Shown: positions 535-23,573 of the stretch, piece by piece
How the letters are laid out: each line of letters begins with the position of its first letter
Numbering within the stretch: position 1 is the first letter of the stretch
NCBI GenBank assembly: GCA_963809655.1
Contig: CAWEKQ010000047.1
Location: 2,523 to 66,522, forward strand
Origin: Terriglobia bacterium
Lineage (GTDB): Bacteria > Acidobacteriota > Terriglobia > Bryobacterales > Bryobacteraceae
Direction of reading: 5' to 3'
DNA length: 64,000 nt
Notes under the pieces: model-generated
Seen by the model: the letters and a program-made list of their open reading frames with translations, nothing else
The model's database searches: none
Told to the model about the DNA's origin: nothing
Translations under genes and position numbers: made by a program

Positions 535-543
535 AAAATAAAA

Positions 544-1577: not shown

Positions 1578-1587
1578 AAATAAAATT

Positions 1588-3524: not shown

Positions 3525-3647
3525 CCACCCACGGTTATGCTGTGCTTTGGCCATAACGACGGATGAAAACGAGCTTCGATAGCGGCCCGTTTGTGAATCT
3601 GGCCGGGCGCTTGTCTGGCCCAACGCAGTTTTGCCTTTCGTCGCAAG

Positions 3648-4685: not shown

Positions 4686-5849
4686 TCAGAGATTGGAACG
4701 AAAAAGCGTCTCGTAGCGCTCGACTATCCTTGCGGTGGAATAGTTATCCAGCACCCGCTGACGCGCCGCAACACCCATCCGCCGGCGGAGGTCACCATCG
4801 CGGAACAGCGTCAGAAAGGCCCGCCCGATCGCTTCCTCTTCGTCAAAAGGGACAGATAGACCGTGGACACCTTCGTCAACCAGCTGCAGGTTAGCGGGAA
4901 TGTCGCTCACCACCGAAGGAAGACCAGCCGCCATTGCTTCGACGAGCGCGCACGGAAATCCTTCGTTGGGCGAGGTAAGCGAAAACACATCGCTCGCACG
5001 TAACCAGAACGGTATCTCCGACGCAGGAACCGGACCGACGAATCGAACCTGCCGCGGCGCCACTCCGCGTTCGGCCACCAATTGGCGGAGTTCCTCCAGC
5101 ATGGCGCCACCGCCCACCAGCACGAGTACTGACTCCGGCTCGGCTAATGCCGCGTGCGCGAATCCACCGATCAGTCCGCGAATCCCTTTCTCCTGCGAGA
5201 GCCGCCCCACGTAAATCGCAACCTTCGCATCGACCGGGATTCCATGATTTTCACGCCATTCCTCGGCTTCTCCTGGCAAAGCAGGCCGGAACTCGTCGGG
5301 GTCGACGGGGTTCGGCATCCACACAAGTTGATCGCGTGTGAAGCCGTCGGCCAGCGCCTCCTGCACCATTCCTTCATTCAGGATCATCACAGGCACGCGC
5401 CATTTCTGCATCCAGTCCAGTTCCAGGCGGCCCGCCCTCGACCTTCGCATCAAGGGAATCAAATTGCTCCCGGAAATCTTCACAAGCACCGGTTTCTTCA
5501 GAAAATGAGCCAGTGGCAGGCCTCCCGCAAGGTGCAGACCCTGCATCAGGAAGTAGACGACATCGTAGCTCCCGCGCAGTTTCCAGATCGCGCTCGCAAC
5601 CTCCCACGTAAAGGCCAGATCTTTCCATCGACCCCGCGAACGCCGCGTCAGAATAGAGACTGGCACTCCGGCTGGATCGACCCAGTCTCTGACAGGCGGC
5701 ATCGGCGGCCCTCCGGAGCACAGTACCCGAACCTGATGACCACTCCTGATCATCGCCGCGCTCACTCTTTGGGCTTCGATCTCCGAGCCGCCCAGCACGG
5801 GTGGGTAGGAGGCGCAAATCAGCAAGACGCGAATCGGTTTCGCAACCAT
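4686..5849 (-). CDS. Glycosyltransferase family 4 (GT-B)
   Basis: ORF 4686..6353. The plausible start is MVAKPIRVLLICASYPPVLGGSE at 5849. C-terminal SPNEGFPCALVEAMAAGLPSVVSDIP..VDEGVHGL is the GT4 E-x7-E region. Confidence 0.85.
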   Translation of the reverse strand: MVAKPIRVLLICASYPPVLGGSEIEAQRVSAAMIRSGHQVRVLCSGGPPMPPVRDWVDPAGVPVSILTRRSRGRWKDLAFTWEVASAIWKLRGSYDVVYFLMQGLHLAGGLPLAHFLKKPVLVKISGSNLIPLMRRSRAGRLELDWMQKWRVPVMILNEGMVQEALADGFTRDQLVWMPNPVDPDEFRPALPGEAEEWRENHGIPVDAKVAIYVGRLSQEKGIRGLIGGFAHAALAEPESVLVLVGGGAMLEELRQLVAERGVAPRQVRFVGPVPASEIPFWLRASDVFSLTSPNEGFPCALVEAMAAGLPSVVSDIPANLQLVDEGVHGLSVPFDEEEAIGRAFLTLFRDGDLRRRMGVAARQRVLDNYSTARIVERYETLFRSNL

Positions 5850-5981
5850 CGATCGTTTATCCCCGCCTCTGCGGAGACGAGGCGCCCGCACATCCGGTGC
5901 AGCTCGCCAGAAAAGCGATTGGAAAGCTGTGGCGGCGGCTGGAACGTCGCGCGCCGCGGGGTTCGCAAGATCAACGGAAGC

Positions 5982-6712
5982 GTGTCGTTCAAACCTGAGA
6001 GGTTGAGTTTCCTCGACGACGACGATCTCCGCGCTATGCTGACCGGGTCGTACGATATCATCCTGTGCGACTACCTGAAAAAGCACGTGAAAGCGGGAGA
6101 CATCGTTCTCGATGTGGGAGCGAACGTGGGCTACATCTCGGCCGTAGCGGCTTCCTTCGCCGGTCCGGCGGGCGAAGTACACGGGTTCGAGCCTCTCGCG
6201 GAGTGCTATGCCCGTCTCAGATCGGCTCCGCGAATTAAATCCGGAATACCGTTTCACCTTCAATAACATTGCGCTGGGAGAGACAGACGGGTTCCTGCCG
6301 ATCGCCTTCAATCCGGACGGCGATTCCCGAAATGCAACTCTGGTGCCGGGCAAGCACTATCCGCAAACCCGCCAGGTACGGGTACGAAGGCTTGATGACT
6401 ATATCGCCGAGACCATCACGTCGCCGCACGCATCAGCTGATCAAGATCGACGTCGAAGGTTTCGAGTTCTCCGTATTAAAAGGGCTCAGCCGCTTTCTGG
6501 CCGAGTTCAAGCCTGTGATCGTTAGCGAAATTAAACCCTGGGAATCGCGTAACCTGAGAGCAACTCTCGATGATTTTGCCAAGTCTATCGGGATGGGTTT
6601 TTCGACGCATTATCAGCCGACAAGAAACACCGGTGGAATTCGAGTGCCTTTGCCGATATGGAAGTGGTTGTATTCCGGGTATGATCCGGAGCGTAGAATT
6701 ACGCGGCCGTAG
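5982..6712 (+). pseudogene. FkbM-family methyltransferase, two frameshifts
   Basis: Three frames join: ..DIVLDVGANVGYISAVAASFAGPAGEVHGFEPL.. (tail of ORF 5154..6266), ..FNNIALGETDGFLPIAF..VRVRRLDDYI (6208..6525) and ..LIKIDVEGFEFSVLKGL..FKPVIVSEI (6269..6712). The start lies somewhere in 5982-6036. Confidence 0.75.
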
Positions 6713-7868
6713 ATTCGCGGCTCAGGGCCTTTTCGACCATTCGCACAAATCGGTCGACATAAATTCCCTCATTAAACTCCGAGTGGGCCATTTCGTATCC
6801 ACGCTTCCCCATTCTTTCACTCAGATTCGGGTCCGAAAGAAGCTGCCGAATCCTCGCTTCAAGCGCGTTCACATCGCCCACCGGGAACAGGAATCCGTTC
6901 TCCCCATGGCGAATCAGCGAGGGAATGCCGCCAATGTCGGAGCCTACTACGGGTATGCCGGCCGCCATGGCTTCGAGCAACACCCTGCCCATTCCTTCAC
7001 AGCGGGAAGGAAGCACCAGCATCGAGGCCCGGCTGATAATGCCGAGGCTCTCTTTGTAGTGTTTGGCAGGAAGGATTTCAATCCGTTCGGCGCCCTCGGT
7101 CAACGCTTCCAGTTGGCTTCGATCCGGAAAATGTCCCATGATCTTCAGCCGGACCTCGGGAAAGTCAGGCGCCAGCCGACGGAACGCCTCCACGAGGAGG
7201 TCTGCGCCCTTGAGATACCAGGGGGCGCCCATCAATAAAATGTAGCGGTCGCCGCCGCTCTGGTGGCACGGGACTACGGAAACCGGCACGAACTCATGGA
7301 AGACCGCATGCCGCGTATTGCGCAGAAGCGGATAAGCGTCAAGCGCCCCGGCGTAAAGCAGATGAACACAGTCACAAGCCCACATACTGACGTGCAGGCA
7401 AAGATCGGAGTAGAATCGCCTCAACCGATCGGCCAAGGTGGGATGGGGCCGATCGTTCAAATACGTACGGTCGGGCGAGGTGGCGATCTCCACTACCAGC
7501 TTCGCGCCAGTCAGCAACTTGATGACGACTCCGCACAATGCCGGGGTCAGGTGCGAGTATGTCATGACGCAATCGATGGGCTTCTCCCGATGCGCCTTCA
7601 ACCCCTCCGAGATGTAAAACCAATAAGTGTGGAGAGCGCGGCGAAGCCCCGTCCAGCGCCATGAAAGGAGCCACCTGTATTGAAAACGCCCCCGTCTATA
7701 CAGTGGCCAGGAGCCTGGTCCAAAGGTCTTTTCGGCCTGTTCCACTTTGTCGTACCAGACAGGTTGCAGCACTTCCCCTTCAAGTCTGTCCGAGAGCAGA
7801 AGAAAACGGTCGGTGCCGCTATCCACAGGAGGCGGGACTGGGCTGGTCTGAATATAGAGTAATCGCAT
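6699..7868 (-). CDS. Glycosyltransferase family 4 (GT-B)
   Basis: ORF 6699..7934, likely start MRLLYIQTSP at 7868. PSRCEGMGRVLLEAMAAGIPVVGSDIGGIPSLIRHGENGFL motif. Confidence 0.85.
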   Translation of the reverse strand: MRLLYIQTSPVPPPVDSGTDRFLLLSDRLEGEVLQPVWYDKVEQAEKTFGPGSWPLYRRGRFQYRWLLSWRWTGLRRALHTYWFYISEGLKAHREKPIDCVMTYSHLTPALCGVVIKLLTGAKLVVEIATSPDRTYLNDRPHPTLADRLRRFYSDLCLHVSMWACDCVHLLYAGALDAYPLLRNTRHAVFHEFVPVSVVPCHQSGGDRYILLMGAPWYLKGADLLVEAFRRLAPDFPEVRLKIMGHFPDRSQLEALTEGAERIEILPAKHYKESLGIISRASMLVLPSRCEGMGRVLLEAMAAGIPVVGSDIGGIPSLIRHGENGFLFPVGDVNALEARIRQLLSDPNLSERMGKRGYEMAHSEFNEGIYVDRFVRMVEKALSRESTAA

Positions 7869-7958: not shown

Positions 7959-8810
7959 ATGATTCGCAATTACCTTCGCCGCATCTACCGCACCGCGCTC
8001 CCGCTGTTGTACGCTCGCAAACATTTCAAATTGTTTCTTAAGGCGTCGCTCGGAGATATTCAAATGCGCATGACCGCTCTGGCGTCTCAAACGGACTACT
8101 TCTCAGATTTTATCCGACCCATTCGTGTTCGCGCGCCATTTGGCAAGTCCGTGCTTGTGGTCGCGCCGCATCAGGACGATGAAGCGATCGGCGTCGGTGG
8201 GTCTCTCGCTCTGCAGGCGCGCAGTGGCGGTCCTGCCGCAATCGTGATCCTGCAGGACGGAGGCGATGAACACGAGAGCTTTGGCATAACACGTGTTGCG
8301 CTGCGGGAGATCCGCAACGCGGAATCGCGGGCTTGCGCAGCCTTGCTCGACCTCGATCCGCCGATCTTTCTGAACCACGTGCAACTGGACGGCGAAATGC
8401 CGGTAGCCGTAGAGGAGGTAAGGAAACTTCTTCGCGAACGCAGGGTAGACGCCGTTTTTGTGCCGTTCGTTCTGGATGGCCATCCCGACCACCGCGCTGC
8501 CAATTACATAGTGGCCACGGCTCTCAAAGAAATTCCGTGGAATGTCCGCGTCCTCGGCTACGAGGTGTGGGGGCTTTGTGTCCCCAACGTGCTGGTGGTA
8601 ATCGACGACGTAATTGAAGACAAGCTCCGCATGATTTCCTGTTTCGAAACAGCGAACAAGGCCGTAGATTATGTATCGAGCACGAAAGGCTTGAACATGT
8701 ATCACTCGCGGATGCTGGGAGCCGGCGAGTGTTCGTATGCGGAGCGGTTCTTCGAGCTTCCCCGCGAAGAATACATTGCTCTGGTAGAGCGCGTGCGCGA
8801 GGCGGAGTAG
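7959..8810 (+). CDS. PIG-L/LmbE-family deacetylase
   Basis: ORF 7893..8810, likely start MIRNYL at 7959. VLVVAPHQDDEAIGVGG and HPDHRAA zinc-binding motifs. Ends with TAG. Confidence 0.85.
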   Translation: MIRNYLRRIYRTALPLLYARKHFKLFLKASLGDIQMRMTALASQTDYFSDFIRPIRVRAPFGKSVLVVAPHQDDEAIGVGGSLALQARSGGPAAIVILQDGGDEHESFGITRVALREIRNAESRACAALLDLDPPIFLNHVQLDGEMPVAVEEVRKLLRERRVDAVFVPFVLDGHPDHRAANYIVATALKEIPWNVRVLGYEVWGLCVPNVLVVIDDVIEDKLRMISCFETANKAVDYVSSTKGLNMYHSRMLGAGECSYAERFFELPREEYIALVERVREAE

Positions 8811-8835: not shown

Positions 8836-9606
8836 ATGGTGGAGTCATCTTCGCGGCCTGAACCGCGGCAGGAAGCGCCCGATAATCGCGACCTGCACAC
8901 CCGGACCGCGCACTCGCTGCGATATCGCCTGACCCGGGATGTAAAACTAGCCCTCGTAGCTTCCCGGTTCCGCTTTCCGCGAAAGTTGGGCGCGTTGCAC
9001 CAACTCTTCCAGATGCAGGAGTTTGTGCATTCGTCGGGCATGATTTCCAGCCCCTCCTTCGAACACCGGAGCCAGCTTTACGAATTCGTGTGCGGCCAGT
9101 TGATTGGACCAGACCCGATTGATTTTCTGGAGTTCGGCGTCTTCAAAGGCGCGTCCGTCCGTCAATGGTTGAAATTGAACCAGCACTCCGAATCGCGCTT
9201 CTACGGCTTCGATACGTTTGAGGGGTTGCCGGAAACCTGGGAGGGCTCTTACGAAAAAGGCTACTTTTCCACCGGCGGTACTTTCCCCGACATCGACGAC
9301 GCCCGAGTGACTTTTATCAAAGGACTCTTTCAGGACAGCCTGGGCCGCTTCCTGCGGAATTACGAGCCCCGCAACCGGATGGTCCTGCATCTCGACGCGG
9401 ACCTCTACACCTCTACGCTGTACGTGATGGCGACACTCAACGAAATGATGAAGCCCGGCACCATTATTATTTTCGACGAGTTCGGAAATGTGAACGACGA
9501 GTTCCGAGCTTGTATGGATTATATGGCGTCGTTCCGGCGAAAACTCAAGCCGGCGGCCTGGGCGGAAGGATTTTATGGCGTCGCGGCTTTTGTCGTGGAA
9601 AGCTGA
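8836..9606 (+). CDS. TylF/MycF-like class I SAM-dependent methyltransferase
   Basis: FLEFGVFKGASV, FYGFDTFEGLPE and LHLDADLYTSTLYVM..GTIIIFDEF match the macrocin-O-methyltransferase-type layout. The exact start is uncertain. Confidence 0.75.
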   Translation: MVESSSRPEPRQEAPDNRDLHTRTAHSLRYRLTRDVKLALVASRFRFPRKLGALHQLFQMQEFVHSSGMISSPSFEHRSQLYEFVCGQLIGPDPIDFLEFGVFKGASVRQWLKLNQHSESRFYGFDTFEGLPETWEGSYEKGYFSTGGTFPDIDDARVTFIKGLFQDSLGRFLRNYEPRNRMVLHLDADLYTSTLYVMATLNEMMKPGTIIIFDEFGNVNDEFRACMDYMASFRRKLKPAAWAEGFYGVAAFVVES

Positions 9607-9744
9607 TCGATGCGTGTTTTCGGCCGCGCGGTCCGGAGTGAACTTAGTATATATGCCTGCTATGGCACACTGTTGAATGTGGCCGAATGGGAAACGGGTT
9701 CGATCATGCGCGGTGATGTCCCGAACCGTTGAGGACGCCCGCTC

Positions 9745-11478
9745 TTGACGCTGAACCAGGCTTTAGCAATCATCAATTCCAGTAAGCGCACCGGCGCGAA
9801 GAAGGTTCATTACCTCGCTTGCGGGTTTGAGCCGCTTCATCTTGCAACTTTTCTGCAGGCGCATTTGTTCGAATGCCCGGGCCTGGACAATATCGAAGTT
9901 CAAAAGGGAATCTACGGAGATCTGCGGGGAAACATTGAGTCGGCTGCGGCGTCACCGGCAACTGCGGCTGCAGTCGGTGCTGGAGTGGAGTGACATCGAT
10001 CCGCGGCTCGGTCTGCGCAGCAGCGGAGGCTGGTCTCGTGAGGCCAAAGGCCGACATCGTCACCGAGTGCCGCACAGCGCTTCACGCAGCTTGAACCCGC
10101 GCTTGAGAACCTTGCCGCCCGAATGCCGGTGGCAGTCGCCGGGCCCATCTTGCCGTTGCCTCCCATCGGAAACACGATCCGGGCTCAGCGCAGCGTTCTG
10201 GAGTTGGAACTCGAGCAGCAGTTGGCCGCCTTCCTATTGCGGATCTCACGCTTTCCAGGAGTGCGAATCGTTGACGGCCCGCGGACCGAGCCGCTGATTC
10301 CATCTCCGGCGCGATTCGACGCGGGAATGGAGTTGCTCGCGGGCTTTCCCTACACGTTGCCCTTTGCCGCTGAACTGGCGAAATCGCTAGTCGATGTCTT
10401 GCACCAGCGGGCTCCTAAGAAAGGATTGATCACCGATCTCGACGAAACGTTCTGGTCGGGAATCGTGGGCGAGGTGGGAGTCGACGGCGTGTCATGGAGT
10501 CAGGAAAACCACACCCAGACTCACGGCCTCTACCAGCAAATGCTCGGCCATCTGGCCGCGTGCGGCGTTTTGCTGGCTGTGTGCTCGAAAAACGAATTGA
10601 CCACGGTCGAAGCTGCGCTCGCCCGTAAAGATCTGTTGCTGGACTCGGCGTCGCTGTTTCCCGTATGTGCCGGCTGGGGGACGAAGTCGGCTTCCGTAGG
10701 TCAGATTCTGCGAACGTGGAATATCGGCGCGGATGCTGTTGTTTTCGTGGATGATAATCCCATGGAACTTGCCGAGGTGCAACAGGCGTTTCCCGGTATC
10801 ACCGCCCTGCAGTTCCGGGGAAAGAGCCCGGCTCAGGTATGGAATCTTCTCGGTGAATTGCGCGATCTTTTCGGTAAGCCGCATCTGACGGAGGAAGACG
10901 CCTTCCGGCAGTTGAGTATCCGCACGTCCGCGCAAATTGAGGAACTGGGAGAAGAGGCGGCAACTCCCGAGTTTCTGCAAAGCCTCCAGGGAGCGGTGAC
11001 CGTATCCTGGCGCGTGGAATCTTCCGACAAGCGGCCGCTTGAGCTGATCAATAAAACAAACCAATTCAACCTTAACGGCCTCCGAATCGAAGAAGGTGAA
11101 TGGCAGCGCCGGATGGACGACTCGAATACGATCCTCGCTGTTGTCTCCTATCGGGATAAGTTCGGCCCCCTGGGGAAGATCGCAGTGGTCCTTGGTCATA
11201 AGACGGGTGAGAAAGTCGCGATTTCGCATTGGGTCATGAGCTGCCGGGCCTTTTCCCGCCGAATCGAGCACCACACGCTCGATTGGTTCTTTCGCCATTC
11301 AAACGCGGAGGAAGTCGAGTTTGCCTTCCAGGTCACGGAAAAGAACCAACCCCTGCGCAAGTTCTTCGAAGCCATCGGCGTTCGCCCGGGACCCGATGGG
11401 ACCCACCGAATCACACGGGCCCAATTCTTATCGCAATGCGGGCCATTGCCGCATCACATTCCGGAGATCGAACAATGA
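9745..11478 (+). pseudogene. FkbH-like protein (HAD-IIIC phosphatase/acyl-loading family), copy 1, about 3 clustered frameshifts
   Basis: ORFs 9745..9993, 9827..10297 (middle part) and 10123..11478. Frames go 1->2->0->1 between about 9985 and 10090. Motifs LITDLDETFWSG (HAD DxDxT), LAVCSKN, VFVDDNP, LINKTNQFNLNG and WVMSCRAFSRRIEH. Confidence 0.85.
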
Positions 11479-11718
11479 ACGAAATCGAAACAAAGAGTCG
11501 CCCGTTGTTTCACCAACGTGTTTCCCGATCTGTCGCCGGATGAGATGGCCGCGGCGAGCACATCGTCGCTTGCCGCCTGGGACTCCATAGCTCAAGTCAC
11601 TTTGCTTTCCTCCATAGCGGAGGAGTTCGGTCAGCCCTTCGAACTGGAGGATTTCGAAGAGCTGGTTTCCTACCGGCTGATCGTCGATCACCTGGAGAAT
11701 CAACCGCGCAATGCGTGA
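11475..11718 (+). pseudogene. Acyl carrier protein 1, one frameshift near codon 8
   Basis: ATG at 11475 overlaps the FkbH stop (ATGA). MNEIETK then shifts into VARCFTNVFPDLSPDEM..LAAWDSIAQVTLLSSIAEEFG (ORF 11518..11718). AWDS is the phosphopantetheine Ser motif. The N-terminus parallels ACP2 (LLNCFQTVFPGMPD). Confidence 0.8.
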
Positions 11719-12886
11719 GCCGCGCCTGTTCGTCGCGGCGGATCTGCGAACCGGCCTGCAGGCGGAATTCGAGCGAGACATCACGGTCGCTGACGTTGCC
11801 GCGTTCGCGGACCTCTCCCACGACTGGAACCCCTTACACATCGATGAGGATTACGCGCGGGGGACAAACTACGGCAAACGAATCGTACATGGAGCGTTCC
11901 AGGTAGGTCTGGCTTCGGCCATGACAGGGATGTATCTGCCCGGCCGTGAGGTTGTGGTCGGCGGGTTTCAATGCCGCTTTCCGGCCCCGTTGTTCTACCC
12001 TTCTCGTGTTCGGGTGCAGGGCGAAATTACGGTCTGGGATCCTCAATCGGCGCGCGGAACGTTGCGAGTACGCGTGGTCGAGAGTGGCGCCGGAATTCTT
12101 ACCTCTGAAATACACGTCTCCTTTTCTCTGCATGAGACGCGTTCGGCTTCCACGCGTGAACCACAAGACCAGAAACCGCAAGCGGAGGGCAAGTCGATCG
12201 TGTTGCTCACGGGCGCGAGTGGAGGTCTGGGTCAGAGGATTGTTGCGGTGCTTTCGGAGTCCTACCAGGTAATCGGTATGGCAAGGTCGCGCCCGCCGGA
12301 ACCAAATGATGGCGGCATGGAATGGATCGAATCCGATCTTGCCGCGGACGATTGGGAAACGATGGCGGAACGGCAACTGCAGGGCCGGCGAATTTACGGC
12401 CTGGTGCACGCAGCCTGGCCGCCTGGCCCACAGGGCGGGCTTCTTGAAGTGGAGATCGATGCGGTCAAAGCCCAACTTGAATTCGGCGGAGCGGGCACTA
12501 TCCGGGTAGCCCGGTTCCTGCGATCGCATGCCGCCGCGGGCGGCGCGCGGTTAGTTGTACTGGGAACTACTGCGGCCACCATCAAGCCGGTTCTTGGTAT
12601 GGCCGCCTACTCTCTGGGCAAAGCGGCGCTCGAACATACGGTACGTCTGCTGGCCCCGGAACTGGCCCGTGCCAACATCACCATTAATACGATCGCGCCG
12701 TCATTTGTTCATGCCGGCATGAACGCTTCAAAGACGAACCGGGTGATTCTGACTGAGACCGCGAAAGTCCCTTTGGGGAAGCTGTGTTCGCCCGAGGATG
12801 TCGCGCACACGGCAGATTTCCTCCTGTCTCCGGGAGCTGCTTTCATCACGGGGCAAACGTTGTCGCTTACCGGAGGGCAACTGTGA
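11711..12886 (+). CDS. MaoC-like (R)-hydratase / short-chain dehydrogenase-reductase fusion protein
   Basis: The N-terminal hot-dog domain has FADLSHDWNPLHID. The C-terminal SDR has VLLTGASGGLGQ and AYSLGKAALEH (YxxxK). Intact 391-aa ORF. Confidence 0.85.
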   Translation: MREPRLFVAADLRTGLQAEFERDITVADVAAFADLSHDWNPLHIDEDYARGTNYGKRIVHGAFQVGLASAMTGMYLPGREVVVGGFQCRFPAPLFYPSRVRVQGEITVWDPQSARGTLRVRVVESGAGILTSEIHVSFSLHETRSASTREPQDQKPQAEGKSIVLLTGASGGLGQRIVAVLSESYQVIGMARSRPPEPNDGGMEWIESDLAADDWETMAERQLQGRRIYGLVHAAWPPGPQGGLLEVEIDAVKAQLEFGGAGTIRVARFLRSHAAAGGARLVVLGTTAATIKPVLGMAAYSLGKAALEHTVRLLAPELARANITINTIAPSFVHAGMNASKTNRVILTETAKVPLGKLCSPEDVAHTADFLLSPGAAFITGQTLSLTGGQL

Positions 12887-12889
12887 GCC

Positions 12890-13132
12890 TCAGGATGGTA
12901 ACAGCTTCTCTTTCAGATAAAAATCGATCAATTGGAACGAATTGAGCTTCTCGATCCGCTCGTAGTCCATTTGTAAGCTGAACTCGTCCTCGATCACGGC
13001 GACCAGATTGATTGTGGCCAGCGAATCCCACGCCGGGGTGGAATCCTGCGTGGCTTCCTTGATCGTCGCGTCGGGCATTCCGGGAAACACTGTTTGAAAA
13101 CAGTTCAAGAGTCTCGGCGTAATGTTATCCAT
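12890..13132 (-). CDS. Acyl carrier protein 2
   Basis: ORF 12890..13192, likely start MDNITPR at 13132. Its start overlaps the FkbH copy-2 stop by 8 nt (ATGGATAA). TPAWDSLATINLVAVIEDEF carries the Ser attachment motif. Confidence 0.85.
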   Translation of the reverse strand: MDNITPRLLNCFQTVFPGMPDATIKEATQDSTPAWDSLATINLVAVIEDEFSLQMDYERIEKLNSFQLIDFYLKEKLLPS

Positions 13133-14870
13133 CGATGTCTTTTTCCGTATATTGGCGTACCTGGTGAAAAAGCTTCGGGCAAGCAGCTTCAAAGGTGTCT
13201 CTGGTCAGGGTGATCGGCCCGTCAGGTTTGTCCGGACTCCACGTATGAAAGAACTCCCGAAGCGGGCCATTCTTATCAGTGGGTTTGAGGTCGAAAATCA
13301 TTTTGTCGACCTGGAGCCGATCGAATAGAGTCCGGAGACACTGATGCTCGACCCGCCGCGAGAAGGCGCGGCAACTCATGACCCATGAACTTACGTGAAG
13401 CGCGTCGTTTTCGCGACTGCCCAGGATCACACATATTTTTCCCAGCGGCCCGAACTTGTCTTCATAACTCACAACCGCCAGCACGCTGCCGGGATGTGCT
13501 GTCCGGCCAAGCCAGTCCTGCTCAGTCAGGCGCACACCGTTGAGATTGAACTGATTGGTCTTGTTGACAAGCTCCAAAGCGCGAGGGTCGCGCTCTCCTG
13601 TGCGGAAGTCGAAAGTGACGGTGGCCATTGCCGCTTCCAGAAAACTCTCAGGTGTAGAACTCTCCTCGGACTCGCGCTGAAATTCGGCGCCCCGGCGGAT
13701 GCTGTCCAGCCGCAGGCGCATCTTCCGGCGAACTGGCTCTTTTCCGCATAGATCGCGAATCTGTGTCAGCATGCGCATCCCCGCGGCGTAATCGTTTCCC
13801 GGAAACTGAATGCATTGGATGCCCGGGTGCGCGGCCGCTACTTCCGCGAGCTCGAGCGGGCTGTTGTCCACGAAGATAACGCTGTCGGCCGCGATGTTCC
13901 ATTTCTTCAGAATTCGACTGACCGAACCGGATTTCGCCTGCCAGTGCACCTCGAAAGGAAATACCTTCCCCGATTGCAGAATGATGTCCGTACGTTGAAA
14001 GCATTTCTCGACCACCAGCGGATCGTTCTTGCTCGCGACGCCAACGTCAGAACTCCCTGTTCGGAGAAGAGGAAAGCAGGTTCTGGTAAAGGGCATGCAG
14101 GTGATGCTTCGCGCTCAGATCCCAGCTGATTCCGTCCGGTCCGACTTCGCCCGCGAGCCCGTTCCAGAGCGTGTCGTCCAGATCCGTGATAATTCCCTTC
14201 CTCGGCGCGGGCGGGGACATAAGACGTGCGTGCGCCGCGGCGAGCGCATGGGCGTGCGCAATCGTATAGGGGAAGCCGACAGTCAGTTCCGATTTCAGGT
14301 CGAAACGCGCGGCCGGCGGGGATCCTCGGCCAGGCGCCACTGATTGACTGATCGACAAGCCGCGCCGTCCGCAGATACTGGCGCAGAACGAGGCGAGCAC
14401 GTGATTCAGCCGGATCTCGACGCTCTCGGTTTGCCAGCCCGGCGTTTGAAAAACGGGGGGAGTGGAAGTCCGGCAGTGAGAGATAATGCGACATGCCCTC
14501 GGGAATTTCCTCAATCGCGACGCGAATCCGTTCCAGCGTCTTTTCCGCGGCGTGCAGAATGTCCTCGGTTCCGGCGGCGCTCCAGCGGGCGGTTGACCGG
14601 TAGTCCAATCGGGAGTCCAGATCCGGCGATTCGACGGCGACGGCGACTCCTTGCGGAGCAGTCGTGGTCGTTCGCTCCAGGGTGCCGCAAAGATCGCCGT
14701 ATAATCCTTCCGAAACCGTGACGAGGCGGTCGGGAAGAGCCTGTTGCAGATGAGCGTGGAGAAAAGTCTTGAAGTGCAGCGACGCAAAACCAACGGCCAA
14801 AACGATCGGAAACCGTGCTACCCCCGGTATCGGCTCCCTGGATTATTTTAAGCGCCTCAGTAACTCTCAA
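13125..14870 (-). pseudogene. FkbH-like protein, copy 2, at least 3 frameshifts
   Basis: Fragments 14511..14870 (MRVTEALKIIQGADTGG), 13907..14800, 14047..14793 (..GIITDLDDTLWNGLAGEVGPDGISW) and 13125..14096 (..IFVDNSP, LVNKTNQFNLNG, WVMSCRAFSRRVEH). Roughly 40-50% identical to copy 1 by eye. Confidence 0.85.
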
Positions 14871-14935
14871 GACCTTATTTTACAGGGTCGGTCATCGCGC
14901 GTTCGCCGCGAGTCACAGGCCCCTTATACTGAGAC

Positions 14936-16038
14936 GTGGGAGAAGTTCGGGCATTTTCGGAAGAACATGTGCGCGACGCGGCCGATCTCTATCTTGAGAT
15001 CGATGCTAGGGGACAAAAGCGTCCCGCCCCGCAGTCGCTCCAGGACTACTTCCGGGACATCTTCCACCGTAACCCCTGGGTTACCCCGACATCCCGTCCC
15101 TCGTTTACATCGACGACGGAAAGCTTACCGGTTTCCTTGGCGTGATCCCGAGACCGATGCAGTTTCGGGGGCGTTCCATTCGCGCGGCAGTGGTGGCCCA
15201 GTTCATGGTGGAAACCAGGCCGTATCGTGGCCCGGCGGCTATCGAAATCATGCGGCACCTGCTCCGCGGTCCCCAGGAAATAACGTTTACCGACGGGGCC
15301 GGCGAAGACGCCAGTCTCGTTTGGGTTGCCGGAGGCGCTCGCGTCGCTCGTCTGTACTCATTCAACTGGATTCGATTGTTGCGTCCCTTCGAAGCGGGTC
15401 GCGGCATGTTCGATCGAATGGGCGGCGCTTCCGGTGTCTTGAAGAGCGCGTCTGGTCTCCTGGCGAGCCCGCTGGATTTCCTGTTGTCCAAGGTGCCCGT
15501 GGCAATGTTACGGAAGCCCGCATCGAAGTATGTTTCAAGAGTGGTATCCCCCGCGGAGTTATTTGAAAGTATTCAGGAATTCGGCGGGCGAGAGCCTTTG
15601 AAGCCGGCTTACGCATTATCTGATTTCACCTGGTTGATGTCTGAAGCCTCGAAAAGCGTCGATGGGTTCCTCAGAATGATGACAGTACATAGCGCCGACG
15701 GAAGCCGCTACGGCTCTTTTGTGTACCACGCCAGGCCGCACAGCTCCGCCTATGTGCTTCAGATAGGATGGCGGCGCCGGGACCATTTTCCCGAAATATT
15801 GACAGCTTTATTCGAAGATGCGTGGAACCAGGGGGTGTACGCGGTTAAGGGACAGGCGATTCCCAAATTCCTGCCTCAGATGTCCGAACAGTACTGCTTG
15901 TTTAGTCAACTTAACTCGTGCGTAGTGGGTTACGCGAAAGATCAGGACTTGATGAACTCATTTCTGCTGGGGGACACAGCCATGTCACGACTCGATGGCG
16001 AGTGCTGGCTTCGCTTTCCTCTGGATGCCTGGGCCTGA
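14936..16038 (+). pseudogene. Large GNAT-type acyltransferase-like protein, one frameshift
   Basis: ORFs 14936..15145 and 15142..16038 join as ..FHRNPWVTP / DIPSLVYIDDGKLTGFLGVIPRPMQFRGRSIRAAVVAQFMVE. The junction is at a CCCC run (15084-15087). The family call rests on the GNAT-like core pattern only. Confidence 0.55.
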
Positions 16039-16061
16039 TTTGTCAGGCGCCTGGCCTCAGG

Positions 16062-16910
16062 TCAGGCAAGTTTGACCGCAATCCGCGCCGAGTGATCAAT
16101 GCGGCTTAACAAAAGGGACGACCCATGCGCAGCAAGGTATTCGTCCGTGGCTTTCCGGGAGCCTTGCCAGTGGCCATAATCGTCGATGATCAGAACTCCA
16201 CCGATGGACAGCCGCGGATAAAGATGCTCCAATTCGTGACGCGTTGAGGCGTACCAATCGGTATCCAGGCGCAACATCGCGATCTTTTCCGGGGCCTGCG
16301 CCGGGATGGTCTCCTCGACCTTGCCCTTTATGAAACCGATTCGCTGGCTGTCATACCTCGTCTTCGTCATGTTTGCCCGAACATCCGCGAGGTCTGCGAA
16401 ACAACTCAGGGACGTATCGTCCCCTGTTTGCTGGACCGCGAAAGTAGCCATAGCCGGGTTCCCGTTGTAGTCAACATCCACGGACTCAGGCCTGGGCATT
16501 CCCTCGAATGTATCGAACAAGTAGAGGTCCCGATCGGAACAAGTCAACTCGTTCAGGGCGAGTGCAGCCGTCATCATACTCCCCCCACGCCAAACACCGC
16601 ACTCGACAAAAGCTCCTGGAATCCTCTGCCGAACAAGGTAACGCACGGCCTCGATGAGGGCGTAGATGCGCTCCGGAGGAGTCATGGTATAGGGTCGAAC
16701 TGTATCGATAATCGAGATATGGCTGGGGGTGAAATCCGGTGGGTACGACCGGATGGGTTCCGGATGGTACGGGACAACCTCGTAGCCGGCCTTCCGAATG
16801 ATGCGTTTGACACTCCGGGCCAGAACCCGCTTGGTCTGAAGAGCAGCTTTCTTCCATCGCCACGACAAACTTTTATCGGGGGCACTCGAGGACATCGTGC
16901 CCATTCTCAC
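16062..16910 (-). CDS. TylF/MycF-family O-methyltransferase
   Basis: GAFVECGVWRGGSMM, LYLFDTFEGMPRP and LRLDTDWYASTRHELEHLYPRLSIGGVLIIDDY. Intact 282-aa ORF. Confidence 0.85.
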   Translation of the reverse strand: MRMGTMSSSAPDKSLSWRWKKAALQTKRVLARSVKRIIRKAGYEVVPYHPEPIRSYPPDFTPSHISIIDTVRPYTMTPPERIYALIEAVRYLVRQRIPGAFVECGVWRGGSMMTAALALNELTCSDRDLYLFDTFEGMPRPESVDVDYNGNPAMATFAVQQTGDDTSLSCFADLADVRANMTKTRYDSQRIGFIKGKVEETIPAQAPEKIAMLRLDTDWYASTRHELEHLYPRLSIGGVLIIDDYGHWQGSRKATDEYLAAHGSSLLLSRIDHSARIAVKLA

Positions 16911-16944
16911 ACACGTCGCCGAGAGGTTTTGAGTTCGCGTTCGA

Positions 16945-18148
16945 TCAGAAGGTATCGAAAACGGAAAAATCCCACGAGTCGGCGGCGGACAGCGCTCCGG
17001 CGAGGCCGGGAGAAGCCGCCTTGTAATACAGCTGCCAGATGGCTAAACGATAGGTGTAGGGCTTCAAATCGTCGGCGGGAGCGCGCTTTGCAGGCATGCC
17101 GGACATGAATTTGACTGCGTCCACGCCGTCTTCGCGAGCGATTTTTATCGCTCCGAGCAAAAGATTCCCTGGTGACTTCGGGATCTTCGTGCAGCGACTG
17201 AAGATCGGCTATGTCGTACAGCGTCATACCCAACTCTGAACCAGGCCGGCGTACCAGCAAGGCATAACCCACCAGGACTCCCCCGGGCTCGGCCGTGACA
17301 ATCGCAATGCGGCCATCCCTGAGTTCGTTACGGAACCGCCATTCCAAAACGGCCCTTGTTCGCACGGCGCGCAGGCGCGCCGTGCCCGTGCGGAGGCCTT
17401 GCCAGAGCGTGTCGAACCGGTCGTCGAATTCGCGGCTCCGGCGGATGGGAAGGGAGGGGCGTCCTCTGCCACTTTGGCGAACCATGTCTCTGAGGAGCAG
17501 AAGCAGCCCGGCCGGCCATGCCCATACCGCGGCGCCCGGGGTGCCTCTTCTCAACAGAATCGCTTTCGCGAAGGCCCGCGGGCGGGCGGCCCAGAAGCAG
17601 GGAATCCCGTAGTCAGGCACAGGGATGCGCGCGATTCTCATGGCTGTCAGAACCTGAGCCGTAGTCGGATTGGCACTGACGTTGAGCAGGAGATCGATTC
17701 CTTTTTGCCGGAAGAATGCAATCATGAGTTGCAGTGCCTTGCCGCGATACCCCATGTCTACCGCCCACCCGGAGGCGATAGCTGCTCTAATCGGCATCCC
17801 TTCGAATTCGTAAAGCATGTGCACGTTATCAAGACACCCGACAATCGAGCCATCGTCTGTTTCGAGGACCCATCCGATCGGAACATCCTGAAACTCTTTC
17901 TCAAGCGGATAGGATTCCCACGTGTCTCGCCAGACGGATTCACTTCCGCTGCCACCGTTTCGCTCTTGAACGTGGCAAACGGCTGCAGCATCCTCGAAGG
18001 TCGCCGGTCTCAATCGGAGCGCGGCTTGTGATCTCGCTTGATTCAACTTGTCCCAGGTCGGAAATCCGAAGTCCACGGGAAATCGCCTCGGCAATCCGGA
18101 TTGCTCGCGCACATAAACGGAGTCTATAAAACTTCCAGCGCAATACAT
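16945..18148 (-). pseudogene. Large GNAT-type acyltransferase-like protein, one frameshift near the C-terminus
   Basis: ORF 16907..18148 (RLRPATFEDAAAV..IRAAIASGWAVDMGYRGKALQLM) turns Arg-rich after about 17180. Frame 16945..17160 (LGAIKIAREDGVDAVKFMSG..) gives a sensible C-terminus. Confidence 0.55.
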
Positions 18149-18592
18149 AATAACAGTGAAAGGTTTCTATCTTTGATTGGCCTTGGCGGGTTGGCCAGTA
18201 TACTCACGGTAAATTGATTCATTCGATTACGCTTTAAATCCCACCCGCAACTGCAAAGTCACGGTGTTTCTGAGCGGGCATGCAATAGCCGAAGCGGATG
18301 CGGGCGTCCAGCGATGCGGTCTGTGCCTATGACTGGCGCATGAGGGCTGGCGAGATCTTGATTCCGAAAAAGCGGACTTTCGCCGTGCAATTCGTGTCCT
18401 TGAAAACGTGCGTCTCGCACCCCTTCCAGAAGCGCAGCCGTTGCTTCAGCCAGCCTCGATATCCGGCCGGGGTATGGCCTGATGATTCCTTGAAACCTGT
18501 GCCGGTCGACATCCTGGCAACGGAAATGGCTTCGCAAACGACGATGCTATGATCGCAAGTGAGGTCACGCCCCCCTGTTCGTCCACTTTCAG

Positions 18593-20088
18593 TTGTCACG
18601 CCGGTATGGTGGATTTGCGATCGCCGCCTTTACCATACTTCTCGCGATCAGTTACTTGACACTTGACACACTGGCTACGGGAGGGAGGCGGTTGGCGAAG
18701 ATTACTGGCATAGATACCGTCGGCTATTTTGGCGTTACTCATTCGCTCCTTTTCGACCATGATTTCAATCTGAATAATGAGTATCAGCGAGTACCGCCGG
18801 CGGATCGCGAACTTACCAAAGTTCAAGCGAACACCGGGCTTCCTGCCAACCACTGGCCCATAGGCTACTCGTCTGGAAATCCCGTTTTCTGGCCTCCGGT
18901 ACGCTTCTCGATTGGGTTGCGGGAAACCCGCCCGACGGATATCGCGGTTTGCTCTTTATGGCTACGGACTGGGCAATACTTTTCTGACTGGCCTCGGGCT
19001 GTTCTTTTTATTCTTACTGCTGTGCGAAGTGGGACGGATGTGGGGTATTGGGGGCGGAAGCGCGGCCGGTTATGCCCTCTTTATTTCCTTCGCGACTTTT
19101 TTCGGAACCGACGTCGGTTATTACTCTTTTGCCCAACTGTCACATGCTTCCACTGCGCTATTTTCCAGTATATTTCTCTATTTATGGTGGAGAATACGCG
19201 CTACAAATCGCGCCATGCGATTGGTTTATTCTGGGATTTGCCGGAGGTTGTCTTTCTATTTGCCGCTGGCAGGACGGGGTATTTCTCGCCGGTCCGCTGC
19301 TTTTCGATGTTATGGGAAGAGAGCTCTGGACGAATCCATGGTCGTGGCTACGATCCAGATTGTTTTATGCCTTCGCGGTGGGCTTGTGCTGGGTACCGCA
19401 GCTCGTTGAGTGGAAGATCATCTATGGCAATTACCTGACGAATCCTTTCCAGGCCAACTATTCCACGTTTCCACCTCCTTTTGTGTGGCAGGTGCTGATG
19501 TCCCAGCCGGAATGGCTGGTTAGCATGGACGCCCTTGATCGTGCCAGGTCTCCTCGGGCTTGCTTACGGCGCTTTTCGGTACTTTCGCGTATACGCGCCG
19601 TGGGTCGCCGTTGTGGCTGCGGAAATCATTCTCGTCGGTTCCCTGAGCTTCTGGCATGGTACGGATTCGTTCAGCTCCCCGTTATTTGACGGCGACGGTC
19701 CCAGTTGTCTCATTGGGGTTGTTCACCTCGTTGTGCGCAGTAGCCATGACGGCGAGGAGAATGTTGATGGCGGCAATTGTTCTTTGCTGCGTGTTCAGCG
19801 TGCTATTTGCAATCCAACTCCGTTTGAACCTGATCCCGTCGTCTGAAACGCTGACTGCGAAGGAAGTGTTTCTCGAGCAAACTGTACCTGATGCGGGTGC
19901 GCAGACAGAAGGCCGCCGCTGGTACGCGCGACGACTTCGACAAGGGCGATGCCAAGTCTGCTATTCGGACACTTGAAGACGCCACGCCCGCGGGAGAGGA
20001 CCGCAACGTGTTGGGTTTGCTGGTCAATGCGTACCGAGTGAATGGCAACCCCGAAGGGAGCGGGCCACAAACGTTGAACAGCGGTTAG
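18593..20088 (+). pseudogene. Polytopic membrane protein, GT-C-like (possible glycan polymerase/transferase), about 5 frameshifts
   Basis: Overlapping fragments 18593..19438, 18912..19409, 19048..19689, 19535..19846, 19656..19976 and 19891..20088 each hold hydrophobic helices (FLTGLGLFFLFLLLCE, WFILGFAGG, MIVPGLLGLAYGAF). The tail is TPR-like. Lower GC than neighbours. Function is tentative. Confidence 0.4.
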
Positions 20089-20116
20089 AGCGCTATCTCG
20101 ATACGAGGCTGAACTA

Positions 20117-21345
20117 ATGAGCCAGGAGCGGCATATGCAGAACGATACGACCACAGGAAACGCCGTGGTGGTTGCGCCGTCTACGGGGGAGGTGGAGCTC
20201 TCGATCATCATGCCGTGCCTGAACGAAGCCGAGACCGTTCGAGACATGCACTTCGGAAGGCACGCGGTTTCCTGGCGAGCCGATGTCGACGGCGAGGTCG
20301 TAATCGGCGATAACGGTTCGACCGACGGCTCGCAGGCGCACGCGCACGGCGAGGGCCCGCGTCGTCGACGTGCCCGTCAGGGGCTACGGCACCGCCCTTA
20401 CCACGCGACCCTCGCGGCGCGCGGCCGATACGTCATCATCGGCGATTCCGACGACAGCTACGACTTCACGTCCTTGGCCCCCTTCCTCGAAAGCTCCGAG
20501 GGGGCCACGACCTGGTCATGGGCAATCGCTTCCTCGGCGGAATCCGGCCCGGCGCGATGCCGTGGAAGAATCGTTACATCGGCAACCCGATTCTCACCGG
20601 TATCGGGCCGATTGTTCTTCCGCTGCCCTGCGCGGGATTTCCATTGCGGCCTACGTGGCTATTCCGGCGCCGCTTTCCGGAGGATGGATCTGCAGACAAC
20701 GGGCATGGAATACGCCTCGGAAATGGTAATCAAGTCTAGCTTCTGGGTCTGCGCATCGTTGAAGTTCCCACCACGCTCGATCCCGACGGACGGAAACGCG
20801 GTCCGCACCTCCGTCCATGGCGCGACGGTTGGCGCCATCTGCGGTTCATGCTTCTTTACAGCCCCCGATGGCTTTTCCTTGTCCCCGGACTGCTCGCTAT
20901 GATTTTCGGCGTCGTCGGCATGGGGGTCCTTATGAGCGGGAACATCTCCATCGGGCACATTCACTTCGGCGTCCATACAATGCTTTATGCCGCGATGGCC
21001 GTTCTCGTCGGCTATCAGGCTGTTATGTTCAGCGTATTTACCAAAGTATTTGCAATCAGCGAGGGGCTTTTGCCCGAGGACGCCGCGCTGAACCGGATTT
21101 TCCGTTTCGTAACACTGGAGTCCGGCCTGATTTTTGGATGCGTGCTTATGGCGCTGAGCACCGCCGTAACTATTCTTGCATTTGCGGATTGGAGCGCTAA
21201 TTCGTTCGGGCAGCTTGAGCCGGAGAAGACGCTTCGGCTGGTCATTCCAGCAGCTTCCACATTTGTGTTTGGTATTCAAACTATCTTGTCTAGTTTTTTT
21301 CTGAGCGTCCTTGGATTGCGTATTCGACGTCATAGGGACTCATGA
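20117..21345 (+). pseudogene. Glycosyltransferase family 2 with C-terminal transmembrane domain, several locally compensated frameshifts
   Basis: The main frame has ELSIIMPCLNEAETV, VVIGDNGSTDGS, YVIIGDSDDSYDF, DFHCGLRGY and GMEYASEMVIK. Excursions occur into 20370..20729 (VPVRGYGTAL) and 20518..20739 (MGNRFLGGIRPGAMPWKNRYIGNPIL). The TM tail is ORF 20848..21345. Confidence 0.8.
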
Positions 21346-21900: not shown

Positions 21901-22104
21901 CCGCACGGCTCGGTTGCACATACGCTGTTTGATCTCTTTTATTCAGGGTACCACTTCAGTTGCCCGATTGATAATCGCGCTTGTTATTTCGCCGCGCTAT
22001 GCTGATTGCCCTTCTGTATGGAATCGAGCCAGGCTGCGTAGTCGCTGCGTGAACTACCACCAGCATGGCCCGAACCGCAGCTAACGAGGTATCATATTAT
22101 TAAT

Positions 22105-23573
22105 ATGGGTCGAATGCTTTCCTCGGGGCCGGTACGCGGGCTGCCCAGGAATACCGCAGGAAATGTTGAATTGCGGATTGACGACGATTTCAGGCGTTCG
22201 GATTCTCCGCGCACGGCCCCTTCGTTGAATACCCCGCAGCAGGAACAAGTCAGTTCCGTGCGCAGAATAGCGTTCTATGCCGCCGTGGCGATGATATTTG
22301 CGCGTATGTCGGTTACGCCGGAGATACTTGCTTATCTAACCGGAACAAATACCTATGTTTTGTATCTGGTTGGGCCACTGGCCTTAATTGGCGTTTTGGT
22401 GAGTGGCGGAATCGGACGGGCTTTTCGATCAAAGGTTAGTTGGTACTGGACGGGGCTGGTTATTTGTATGCTTATTGCAACGCCGGTCAGTTCCTGGCCT
22501 GGAGGCTCAGCGCAACTCGTTTCAACCTACTTACGGACTGATTACATCTGCCTACTGGTATTAGCAGGAACCGTTTCAACCTGGAAAGATATTAAAACGG
22601 TCTTCAATATGTTGGTCGCCTCGGGGTTTATTGTTTTGTGCGTTGTGAGGTTTCTGGCCACACCGGACAATGAGGGCCGTCTGGCACTCGATGTCACTGA
22701 CAGCACGATCGGCAACCCCAACGATTTGGCGGCCCATGTCTTGCTGTTGTTGCCGTTTATGTGTATTTCGGATTTAAGGCCGGGCAGAATAAGATATTTC
22801 GGCTTGCTCGCGCTCGGCGGTGGCTTCTACAGCGTCTGGATCATCCTCGGCACCTCTTCCCGTGGTGCGTTCATCGCGCTGGCGAGCAATGGCGGTCTAC
22901 CTTTTCTTCAAAGCCACCGGCAGCGCAGCGGATTGCCATAGTCCTGGTGGGCGTTCCTGTGTTGGCCACGGTGCTGGTGGCGATACTGCCCGCGCAGAAC
23001 CTGGCGCGTCTGCGGACGATCTTCAATCCCGAAAATCCTGCCGCCGCGGGCATCGCGGCCGAAGCGGGTGAATCTTTCGATTCCCGCACTTATCTTCTCA
23101 AGAAAAGTATTGAGTATACTTTTCAGCATCCTGTCTTCGGCGTGGGCCCAGGCCAATTTTCGAATTACGAAGGATCGAGTAGCCGCAAGGTGGGCGAGCA
23201 CGGCAACTGGCACGAGACTCATAACTCCTACACTCAGATTTCCAGCGAATGCGGCCTGCCCGCCGTGATCCTGATGATGGCCGCTTCCTTTGGAGCGATG
23301 GGTCTGGTTTCAAAGACTCTGAAGAAAGCGCGAGCGTGCGGAAACAAGGAGGTGGCCGGCGCGTGCGTTTGTTATCTGGTTTCCTGGGCCGGCTATCTCG
23401 TCACAATAACCTTCCTGGCTTGCGGGTATCGATTCACCTTACCGGCCATGATCGGTCTGGCTGCGGCGATTCACATCGCCGGCGAACGGGAACTTGCCGC
23501 ATCCGTACAGGTCCCGTCTGTTCGCCCGAACGCGTATCCGATCGGACCCGCCGCCCTGCGCCCCATCGGCTGA
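22105..23573 (+). pseudogene. O-antigen ligase/polymerase-like (Wzy_C) membrane protein, two frameshifts near 22890-22930
   Basis: ORFs 22105..22941, 22820..23071 (short stretch) and 22761..23573. Motifs GTSSRGAFIALA, then MAVYLFFKATGS, then QRIAIVLVGVP...GNWHETHNSYTQISSECGLPAVILM. Many TM helices. Confidence 0.75.

Follow-up and report, generated by a model that had tools for sequence, protein, structure and literature searches.

Introduction

Enzymes of the FkbH type form a glyceryl thioester on an acyl carrier protein (ACP) from 1,3-bisphosphoglycerate (PMC3625739). The members described from polyketide, tetronate and methoxymalonyl-ACP pathways (FkbH, OzmB and the Tmn16/ChlD1 type) hand this unit to a ketosynthase (KS), a FabH-like enzyme or FkbI/K/G. 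In this paper we looked at a 64,000-nucleotide stretch of DNA from a Terriglobia bacterium of the Bryobacteraceae (assembly GCA_963809655.1, contig CAWEKQ010000047.1, positions 2,523 to 66,522; hereafter the window). It holds two FkbH-type genes that share with those enzymes the TIGR01686 family, its motifs and a dedicated ACP, whereas their neighbours are glycan genes. We suggest, with a probability of about 60%, that two independent acyl-tailoring cassettes make up the region at 7.9-18.1 kb, in which FkbH-loaded three-carbon acyl units would be tailored on ACPs and put on sugar amines.

Two groups of known systems resemble parts of this arrangement. In the polyketide synthase (PKS) loading modules of bryostatin (BryA) and FR901464, which have the order dehydratase (DH)-ketoreductase (KR)-FkbH-ACP, glyceryl-ACP is converted into a lactyl starter. 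As in the window, a dehydratase and a reductase accompany an FkbH enzyme and its ACP, and a related cis module, DH-FkbM-FkbH-ACP, is found in one of the loci that we surveyed (L071). Yet these modules use a PS-DH domain and a downstream KS, whereas the window has a free-standing MaoC hot-dog domain fused to a short-chain dehydrogenase/reductase (SDR) and no KS. Since the linkage of dehydratase and SDR to FkbH-ACP is in trans only, and the MaoC domain does not have the PS-DH fold, the likeness is one of analogy and not of family membership. The second group is formed by the Vibrio cholerae O1 tetronate-perosamine genes rfbK-O and the Pseudomonas flagellin islands, where a free-standing ACP and acyl-modifying enzymes lie in a glycan locus and the acyl group is put on a sugar amine. 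Those systems rely on ligases or FabH/FabG-type acyl synthesis and on transferases that are not like N-myristoyltransferase (NMT), while the window has FkbH enzymes and tandem GNATs.

Judging by the domain described for cj1302 in the literature, the flagellin glycosylation locus of Campylobacter jejuni may be the closest, although partial, precedent. The likeness lies in an fkbH-domain gene, cj1302, within a PKS-free glycan locus (PMC7099621), in an amino sugar that is N-acylated by an O-methylated glyceric acid, 5-N-(2,3-di-O-methylglyceroyl)-pseudaminic acid, and in a de-N-acetylation, by Cj1295, that was proposed to precede re-acylation (PMC3068675). The di-O-methylglyceroyl modification was detected again at the level of the CMP-sugar (bioRxiv 10.64898/2026.04.20.719630). 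There are clear differences: in C. jejuni a glycoprotein carries the modified nonulosonic acid, whereas the window is a Wzx/Wzy polymer locus; the proposed deacylase is aminopeptidase-like, whereas the window has a PIG-L protein; and neither a MaoC-SDR branch, paired cassettes nor a tandem-GNAT partner, all present in the window, is reported from C. jejuni. In the open literature that we searched we found no biochemical link of cj1302 to the glyceroyl group and no paper that ties FkbH/ACP biochemically to a glycan, C. jejuni being the only mention.

The two FkbH-ACP pairs

Window genes were taken from our own picking of open reading frames (ORFs) and from Pfam scans of the concatenated ORFs; gene picking based on GC3 did not discriminate. 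For comparison, each species was scanned with a single genome, which gave at least 594 relatives of the FkbH type of ~575 amino acids (aa), and we analyzed 84 loci, the best 80 of these relatives and four others, with flanks of up to 10 kb per side where the contig allowed. These loci were annotated with our own hidden Markov models (HMMs), all-against-all clustering and Pfam searches of the cluster representatives. Ten genes occupy the cassette region of the window:

7959-8810, plus strand: PIG-L/LmbE-type de-N-acetylase (PF02585, 68.5 bits; weak BshB1/2 similarity; PHQDDE and HPDH in the translation)
8836-9606, plus strand: TylF-a, TylF-family S-adenosylmethionine-dependent O-methyltransferase (PF05711, 59.7 bits; PF13578)
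9745-11478, plus strand: FkbH1, FkbH-domain/HAD-IIIC protein of ~575 aa, predicted glyceryl-ACP loader (TIGR01686, 228.2 bits after frame repair)
11475-11718, plus strand: ACP1, 80 aa (PF00550, 21.5 bits)
11711-12886, plus strand: MaoC-SDR, fusion of a MaoC hot-dog dehydratase and an SDR reductase, 391 aa (PF01575, 66 bits; PF13561, 90 bits; PF00106, 47.5 bits)
12890-13132, minus strand: ACP2, 80 aa (weak NCBIfam ACP matches, E ~1e-4; match to our own ACP HMM)
13125-14870, minus strand: FkbH2, second FkbH-domain protein (TIGR01686, 185.2 bits after frame repair)
14936-16038, plus strand: GNAT1, predicted tandem-GNAT (NMT/Eis-like) acyltransferase of ~365 aa, divergent from FkbH2 (fold model of a homologue)
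16062-16910, minus strand: TylF-b, TylF-family O-methyltransferase downstream of GNAT2 (PF05711, 155 bits)
~16945-18046, minus strand: GNAT2, predicted tandem-GNAT acyltransferase of ~360 aa, no Pfam family (fold model of a homologue)

Several of these frames are interrupted, and frameshift-aware alignment of intact homologues to the DNA placed 10 indels of 1-2 nt at 9.7-18.0 kb:

FkbH1: three 1-nt indels, at ~9977, 10047 and 10072
ACP1: one, at ~11491
FkbH2: four events, at ~14066, 14433, 14468 and 14800
GNAT1: one, at ~15091
GNAT2: one, at ~17166

The first-pass annotation, a reading of the DNA without database searches, had already recognized both FkbH genes, and after frame repair both lie above the curated TIGR01686 cut-off of 146.65 bits, as does the orthologue of the related locus L006 (205.6 bits). 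The two motifs that it had pointed out, DLD(E/D)T and VMSCRAFSRR, are found in both copies, and so are SKN and FVD(D/N): FkbH1 has ITDLDETFW, SKN, FVDDNP and VMSCRAFSRR, and FkbH2 has ITDLDDTLW, SKN, FVDNSP and VMSCRAFSRR. Both repaired proteins keep the catalytic Asp and Cys, in the HAD motif I DxDxT and in SCRAFSRR, at columns that are invariant in the family alignment. The identity of the two proteins is 39.5%, at the lower edge of the 40-50% that had been estimated by eye. FkbH1 is 79% identical to the intact FkbH ORF of L007 (an earlier comparison of a 451-aa C-terminal ORF with the same protein, P0002, gave 80%) and its nearest relatives are recorded as Bryobacteraceae (Acidobacteriota), while FkbH2 is 85% identical to an intact 558-aa ORF of L006.

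Each FkbH gene overlaps the gene of its own ACP, as had been described. The stop of FkbH1 and the ATG of ACP1 overlap as ATGA, and the start of ACP2 overlaps the stop of FkbH2 as ATGGATAA; by this start/stop overlap both ACPs are dedicated partners. Both contain the AWDS motif and they share 34% identity. ACP1 is 64% identical to an 80-aa ACP of L001, and L006 has an intact, syntenic 80-aa ACP as the counterpart of ACP2.

Partner enzymes

The MaoC-hydratase/SDR fusion was correctly named before, and its motifs are kept: SHDWNPLH in the hydratase, TGASGGLG (TGxxxGxG) and YSLGK (YxxxK) in the reductase. The proposal that both modules converge on it does not hold. The stop of ACP1 and the start of MaoC-SDR overlap as ATGCGTGA, and the fusion is coupled to ACP1 and not to ACP2; it is therefore a member of the FkbH1 operon and not a shared hub. 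The order FkbH, ACP, MaoC-SDR is found in ~10 other loci, from Acidobacteriota, Planctomycetota and Proteobacteria.

Directly upstream of TylF-a lies the PIG-L gene, which the first-pass annotation had overlooked and which is part of the FkbH1 unit. It is 65% identical to the PIG-L protein encoded directly upstream of the L003 FkbH, and PIG-L precedes FkbH1-type genes in the window, in L003/L004 and in L007. PIG-L is a plausible source of the free sugar amine that would act as the acceptor.

The two TylF methyltransferases are where they had been placed, with PF05711 in both. The position of TylF-b is matched in L006, and L007 has a small TylF gene that overlaps the end of its ACP gene. TylF enzymes classically act on sugar hydroxyls.

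The candidate transferases

The two GNAT-type proteins had been described as 370-400 aa long. Models of homologues support a tandem-GNAT fold for both. The lengths come to ~365 and ~360 aa, and GNAT2 spans ~16945-18046, near the 16945-18148 given before. By sequence these proteins are difficult to place: neither has an above-threshold Pfam match, a search of both against the PDB gave nothing useful, and the homologues from L001 and L003 match PF13527 and PF00583 below threshold only. The GNAT1 homologue P0241, at 90% identity, has a PF13527 domain, and several GNAT1-type homologues have precomputed PF13527, PF00583 or PF13508 domains. GNAT2 is 79% identical to P0122, and on none of the listed GNAT2-type proteins is there a precomputed Pfam domain.

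The AlphaFold2 models of P0122 and P0241 have mean confidence (pLDDT) values of 88.8 and 90.4, respectively. In Foldseek both match NMT and Eis-type tandem GNATs with a probability of 1.0, TM scores of 0.5-0.58 and E values of ~1e-13 (GNAT2 homologue) and ~1e-12 (GNAT1 homologue); the matches include NMT, Eis2, 2ozg, 4my3 and 2hv2. Based on these models, each chain of ~360 aa would contain two GNAT-fold domains, which is the tandem-GNAT architecture. GNAT1 and GNAT2 are distant paralogues, with 25% identity over 118 residues (E 1.6e-5). Eis N-acylates the amino sugars of aminoglycosides, and the donors of both NMT and Eis are acyl-CoAs. GNAT1 and GNAT2 share with these enzymes the predicted fold, at an identity of only 10-15% and without an above-threshold match to the Pfam NMT or Eis families. 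While NMT and Eis take acyl-CoA donors, the context in the window and the domain fusions of the family point to carrier-protein thioesters.

These fusions came from a search with a GNAT2-family profile, which gave 2729 representatives at E <= 1e-3, of which 430 remained at E <= 1e-30. Among the top matches a GNAT2-like domain is the C-terminal part of nonribosomal peptide synthetase (NRPS) proteins with the order condensation (C)-adenylation (A)-peptidyl carrier protein (PCP)-thioesterase (TE)-GNAT2-like (P0427 and P0449) and of a PKS protein, KS-ACP-GNAT2-like (P0496), and it stands behind a CE4 deacetylase in P0498 and, weakly, also in P0384. Through these fusions the family is connected with the chemistry of carrier-protein thioesters and also with de-N-acetylation. 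They suggest that the GNAT2-type domain represents a carrier-protein-dependent off-loading or acyl-transfer family, of which we found no earlier description. For the ~365-aa proteins, the predicted tandem-GNAT structures and the fusions give independent support to a role as transferases.

Absence of PKS and NRPS genes

The first-pass annotation had found no KS, acyltransferase (AT) or condensation domain in the 64 kb, and our searches agree with it. Regular expressions for KS, AT, C and A motifs missed a real KS in L071 and were replaced by tblastn with genuine domains of L071, which gave no match to KS, AT, C or TE in the window. With the A domain as query, all matches were to stand-alone ligases of other loci. 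Nor did Pfam searches of the principal window ORFs reveal a KS, AT or C domain. The ketoacyl-synthase/FabH-like family is absent from the Pfam-scanned window ORFs and tblastn with type-I KS was empty, although no FabH sequence was used as a query. All ten genes of the 7.9-18.1 kb region are accounted for and none is acyl-CoA-dehydrogenase-like. As FkbI/FkbK-like, FabH-like and KS genes were not found, we rejected the readings of the cassettes as methoxymalonyl-ACP, tetronate or PKS-starter systems.

The same picture is obtained from the related loci, where KS, AT or C domains of a PKS or NRPS accompany FkbH in one of 84. In this locus, L071 from an Acidobacteriaceae metagenome-assembled genome, positions 3-7649 and 16856-20947 encode the DH-FkbM methyltransferase-FkbH-ACP loading module and an A-PCP-KS-AT-ACP-C-TE protein. 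Orthologous loci adjacent to PKS/NRPS genes, which would have spoken against a transfer to sugars, are the exception.

Related FkbH loci

The best 80 relatives are mostly from Acidobacteriota, with some from Planctomycetota, Nitrospira, Proteobacteria and Actinomycetota. In the 84 loci we counted the following neighbours (GT, glycosyltransferase):

ACP directly downstream of FkbH: ~70 loci
GT4: 29 loci
Hexapeptide (LbH) acyltransferase: 29 loci, 20 within 3.5 kb
GT2: ~24 loci
MaoC-SDR adjoining: ~18 loci
VOC/glyoxalase-fold gene after the ACP: 17 loci
AsnB-like: 16 loci
AMP-ligase: 14 loci
UDP-sugar dehydrogenase: 12 loci
Wzy: 10 loci
CE4 (polysaccharide) deacetylase: 8 loci
FemAB-like: 6 loci
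AT3: 6 loci
Wzx: at least 5 loci

A tandem GNAT of ~350 aa (GNAT1, GNAT2, c16 or u351 group) is present in ~27 loci; the GNAT1 HMM links these groups, u351 weakly. FkbH1-type genes occur with GNAT2 in L003, L007, L008 and L009, with PIG-L ahead in L003 and L007, whereas FkbH2-type genes are divergent to GNAT1 in L006 and L056. By sequence and gene order, the two window cassettes are separate lineages, each of which is also found singly elsewhere.

Some neighbours deserve mention in their own right. The VOC/glyoxalase-fold gene (PF13669) that follows the ACP, for example at L075:11953-12417 and L001:16066-16509, often has the LbH acyltransferase next to it; by analogy with methylmalonyl-CoA epimerase, its product might epimerise C2 of glyceryl-ACP. 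In L003 (18644-19813) and L004 (18358-19527) a phosphoglycerate kinase gene follows the FkbH cassette at a distance of ~7 kb, perhaps by coincidence; this kinase makes 1,3-bisphosphoglycerate, the FkbH substrate. Two protein clusters are without a Pfam family: u611 (611 aa), in 14 loci and often after the LbH gene (e.g. L062:12524-14356), and u351 (351 aa), in 8 loci (e.g. L012:11966-13018) and weakly related to the tandem GNATs.

The glycan locus and its setting

The cassettes lie within a Wzx/Wzy-type glycan locus of ~3.6-37.7 kb. A flippase, a polymerase/ligase-like protein and several GTs cluster together there, as is expected of such a locus, and the GTs, Wzx and Wzy-like genes that had been noticed before are all identified by Pfam. 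The G+C content of the window is ~59%, and its right half is unrelated to the glycan locus. The further features are:

596-1585, minus strand: IS1595-type transposase
2259-3521, plus strand: phage-type integrase
~3.6-37.7 kb: two GT4, a GT2, several methyltransferases and a CE4 deacetylase (Pfam)
18563-19843, plus strand: multi-pass membrane protein, frameshifted, without a Pfam match, directly after GNAT2
22042-23570: Wzy_C, frame-split (Pfam)
26766-28970, minus strand: large secreted-looking proteins, one with a PKD-like domain
30517-31764 (30520-31842 in the Pfam scan), minus strand: Wzx flippase, Polysacc_synt_3
31965-33383, plus strand: DDE_Tnp_1 transposase
34767-36121: WecB/UDP-GlcNAc 2-epimerase, frame-split (Pfam)
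46469-47647, minus strand: DDE_Tnp_1 transposase

The integrase and an insertion sequence (IS) stand at the left edge of the glycan locus (0.6-3.5 kb), and another IS is inserted within it. The 473-aa transposase of the latter abuts the 5' end of the Wzx gene, and an identical copy is found on an unrelated 425-kb contig, L005.

Discussion

The idea that ACP-bound acyl groups are tailored and transferred to sugars was put forward in the first-pass annotation with two parallel branches. Our results support it in a modified form, in which the branches are independent of each other and MaoC-SDR serves branch 1 only. From the genes that are present, their motifs and their coupling we infer the substrates and the following order of steps. 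Each FkbH would dephosphorylate a glycolytic three-carbon unit, 1,3-bisphosphoglycerate, and load it as a glyceryl thioester onto its own ACP. In branch 1, formed by PIG-L, TylF-a, FkbH1, ACP1 and MaoC-SDR together with GNAT2 and TylF-b, the MaoC domain would dehydrate glyceryl-ACP to the enol of pyruvoyl-ACP, which the SDR domain would then reduce to a lactyl-type (2-hydroxypropanoyl) ACP. In branch 2, formed by FkbH2, ACP2 and the divergent GNAT1, the glyceryl unit would remain unaltered. The TylF enzymes may O-methylate hydroxyls of the acyl groups or of the sugars. PIG-L would strip the N-acetyl group from a residue of the GlcNAc or ManNAc type, and GNAT2 in branch 1 and GNAT1 in branch 2 would pass the acyl group of the ACP thioester on to the freed amine. 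The outcome would be a repeat unit with two different glycerate-derived N-acyl decorations.

Several points weigh against this mechanism. In the locus we found neither an aminotransferase nor a dehydratase that would make a dedicated amino sugar, which leaves PIG-L as the only candidate for the source of the amine. The best structural matches of the tandem GNATs use acyl-CoA as the donor. The SDR domain could oxidise the 3-hydroxyl of the glyceryl unit, in the manner of FkbK, instead of reducing a 2-oxo/enol intermediate, and, in view of the sugar hydroxyls on which TylF enzymes classically act, it is conjectural that the acyl unit is O-methylated. Finally, the window copy is frameshifted, and its function in this genome presupposes assembly errors.

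One possible option, which we consider unlikely but deserving of attention, is that the cassettes install ester-linked O-glyceroyl or O-lactyl groups and that PIG-L serves an unrelated step. L007 has two FkbH-ACP pairs, and the second is followed by an Acyl_transf_3 (AT3)-SGNH O-acyltransferase; AT3 flanks FkbH in six of the 84 loci. In the cultured Bryobacteraceae strain Paludibaculum fermentans P105, the 55-kb plasmid pPfer1 (NZ_CP063850.1 29011-38205, L088) carries a GNAT gene divergent from an operon of FkbH, GT2, polysaccharide deacetylase, two GTs and MBOAT, so that FkbH shares its operon with an O-acyltransferase candidate; an ACP is not listed in the gene table of pPfer1, which is incomplete. 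These loci make an ester linkage possible. Yet neither AT3 nor MBOAT is among the scanned ORFs of the window locus, where the partners have the GNAT fold and characterised GNATs mostly N-acylate, while PIG-L and CE4 deacetylases recur beside the cassette and a CE4-GNAT2 fusion exists.

It can also be asked whether the acyl-ACPs feed a product other than a glycan (N-acyl amino acids, lipid head groups and small secreted metabolites come to mind), with the GNATs acylating the amine of an amino acid or peptide. Peptide N-myristoyltransferases are the best structural matches, GNAT2-like domains end NRPS and PKS modules, and some related loci hold AMP-ligases and AsnB-like genes. In the window, however, GTs, Wzy and Wzx surround the cassette and the searches for KS, C and A domains were negative; in the 84 loci glycan-assembly genes are the commonest clustered neighbours, and sugar de-N-acetylases recur. 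Based on this balance we regard a non-glycan product as quite unlikely.

Another question is whether the window copy is functional. If the frameshifts were real, the cassettes would be decaying on an island that has IS elements and an integrase at its flanks. Such a reading would fit the ten indels within 9.3 kb, the IS and integrase genes at 0.6-3.5 kb and the IS that interrupts the locus at 31965-33383, but the repaired proteins align end to end with intact homologues, without internal stops and with conserved motifs. Several indels lie at or beside homopolymer runs of 2-4 bases, and many related assemblies bear long-read-style contig names. Unrelated window genes such as Wzy_C and the WecB-type UDP-GlcNAc 2-epimerase are split likewise, which suggests roughly one small indel per kb along the contig, as would fit a long-read-only assembly. 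The close relative L006, an 8.2-kb JGI contig, contains MaoC-SDR, ACP, FkbH2, GNAT1, TylF, GNAT2 and Wzy in the order of the window, all intact and with 79-90% identity to the window proteins where measured. Because L006 carries the same genes intact, we read the frameshifts as probable assembly errors and leave a small probability to true decay. The pseudogene reading is thus largely rejected and we hold it to be very improbable. The last alternative, that the FkbH-like proteins are only HAD phosphatases of sugar phosphates and the ACPs bear another acyl group, would suit the NCBI family name "HAD-IIIC family phosphatase" and a substrate that we only infer, but it is hardly credible given the full TIGR01686 domain with its C-terminal Cys-containing half, the near-universal ACP coupling and the absence of another acyl-activating enzyme in the 7.9-18.1 kb unit.

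The two-cassette mechanism would link FkbH, a loading enzyme of natural-product pathways, to primary cell-surface glycan biosynthesis, and genome-mining tools that use FkbH as a PKS marker would mis-call such loci. The ~360-aa tandem GNATs are candidate carrier-protein-dependent sugar N-acyltransferases, and for the GNAT2 type we found neither a Pfam model nor a characterised member. If true, the mechanism may also explain how the long-known di-O-methylglyceroyl-pseudaminic acid is made in C. jejuni. Paludibaculum fermentans P105 offers a tractable, cultured carrier of a related locus.

In soil, Acidobacteriota rank with the most abundant bacteria, and the extracellular polysaccharides that they produce are thought to be important for soil aggregation and for survival of desiccation. 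To our knowledge, the chemistry of acidobacterial extracellular polysaccharides is almost unknown. The cassettes predict that these polymers bear non-carbohydrate substituents, namely glyceroyl, lactyl and O-methyl-glyceroyl amides. More tentatively, and at somewhat less than even odds, we suggest that FkbH-ACP forms the core of a glycan-tailoring system that is widespread in soil bacteria. Such a system would draw on 1,3-bisphosphoglycerate for decorations of the glyceroyl, lactyl, pyruvoyl or O-methyl-glyceroyl kind and would use NMT-like tandem GNATs, as a family not described before, as carrier-protein-dependent sugar N-acyltransferases in a deacetylate-then-reacylate scheme, and where two branches come together, as in the window, it may lead to a doubly decorated polymer.

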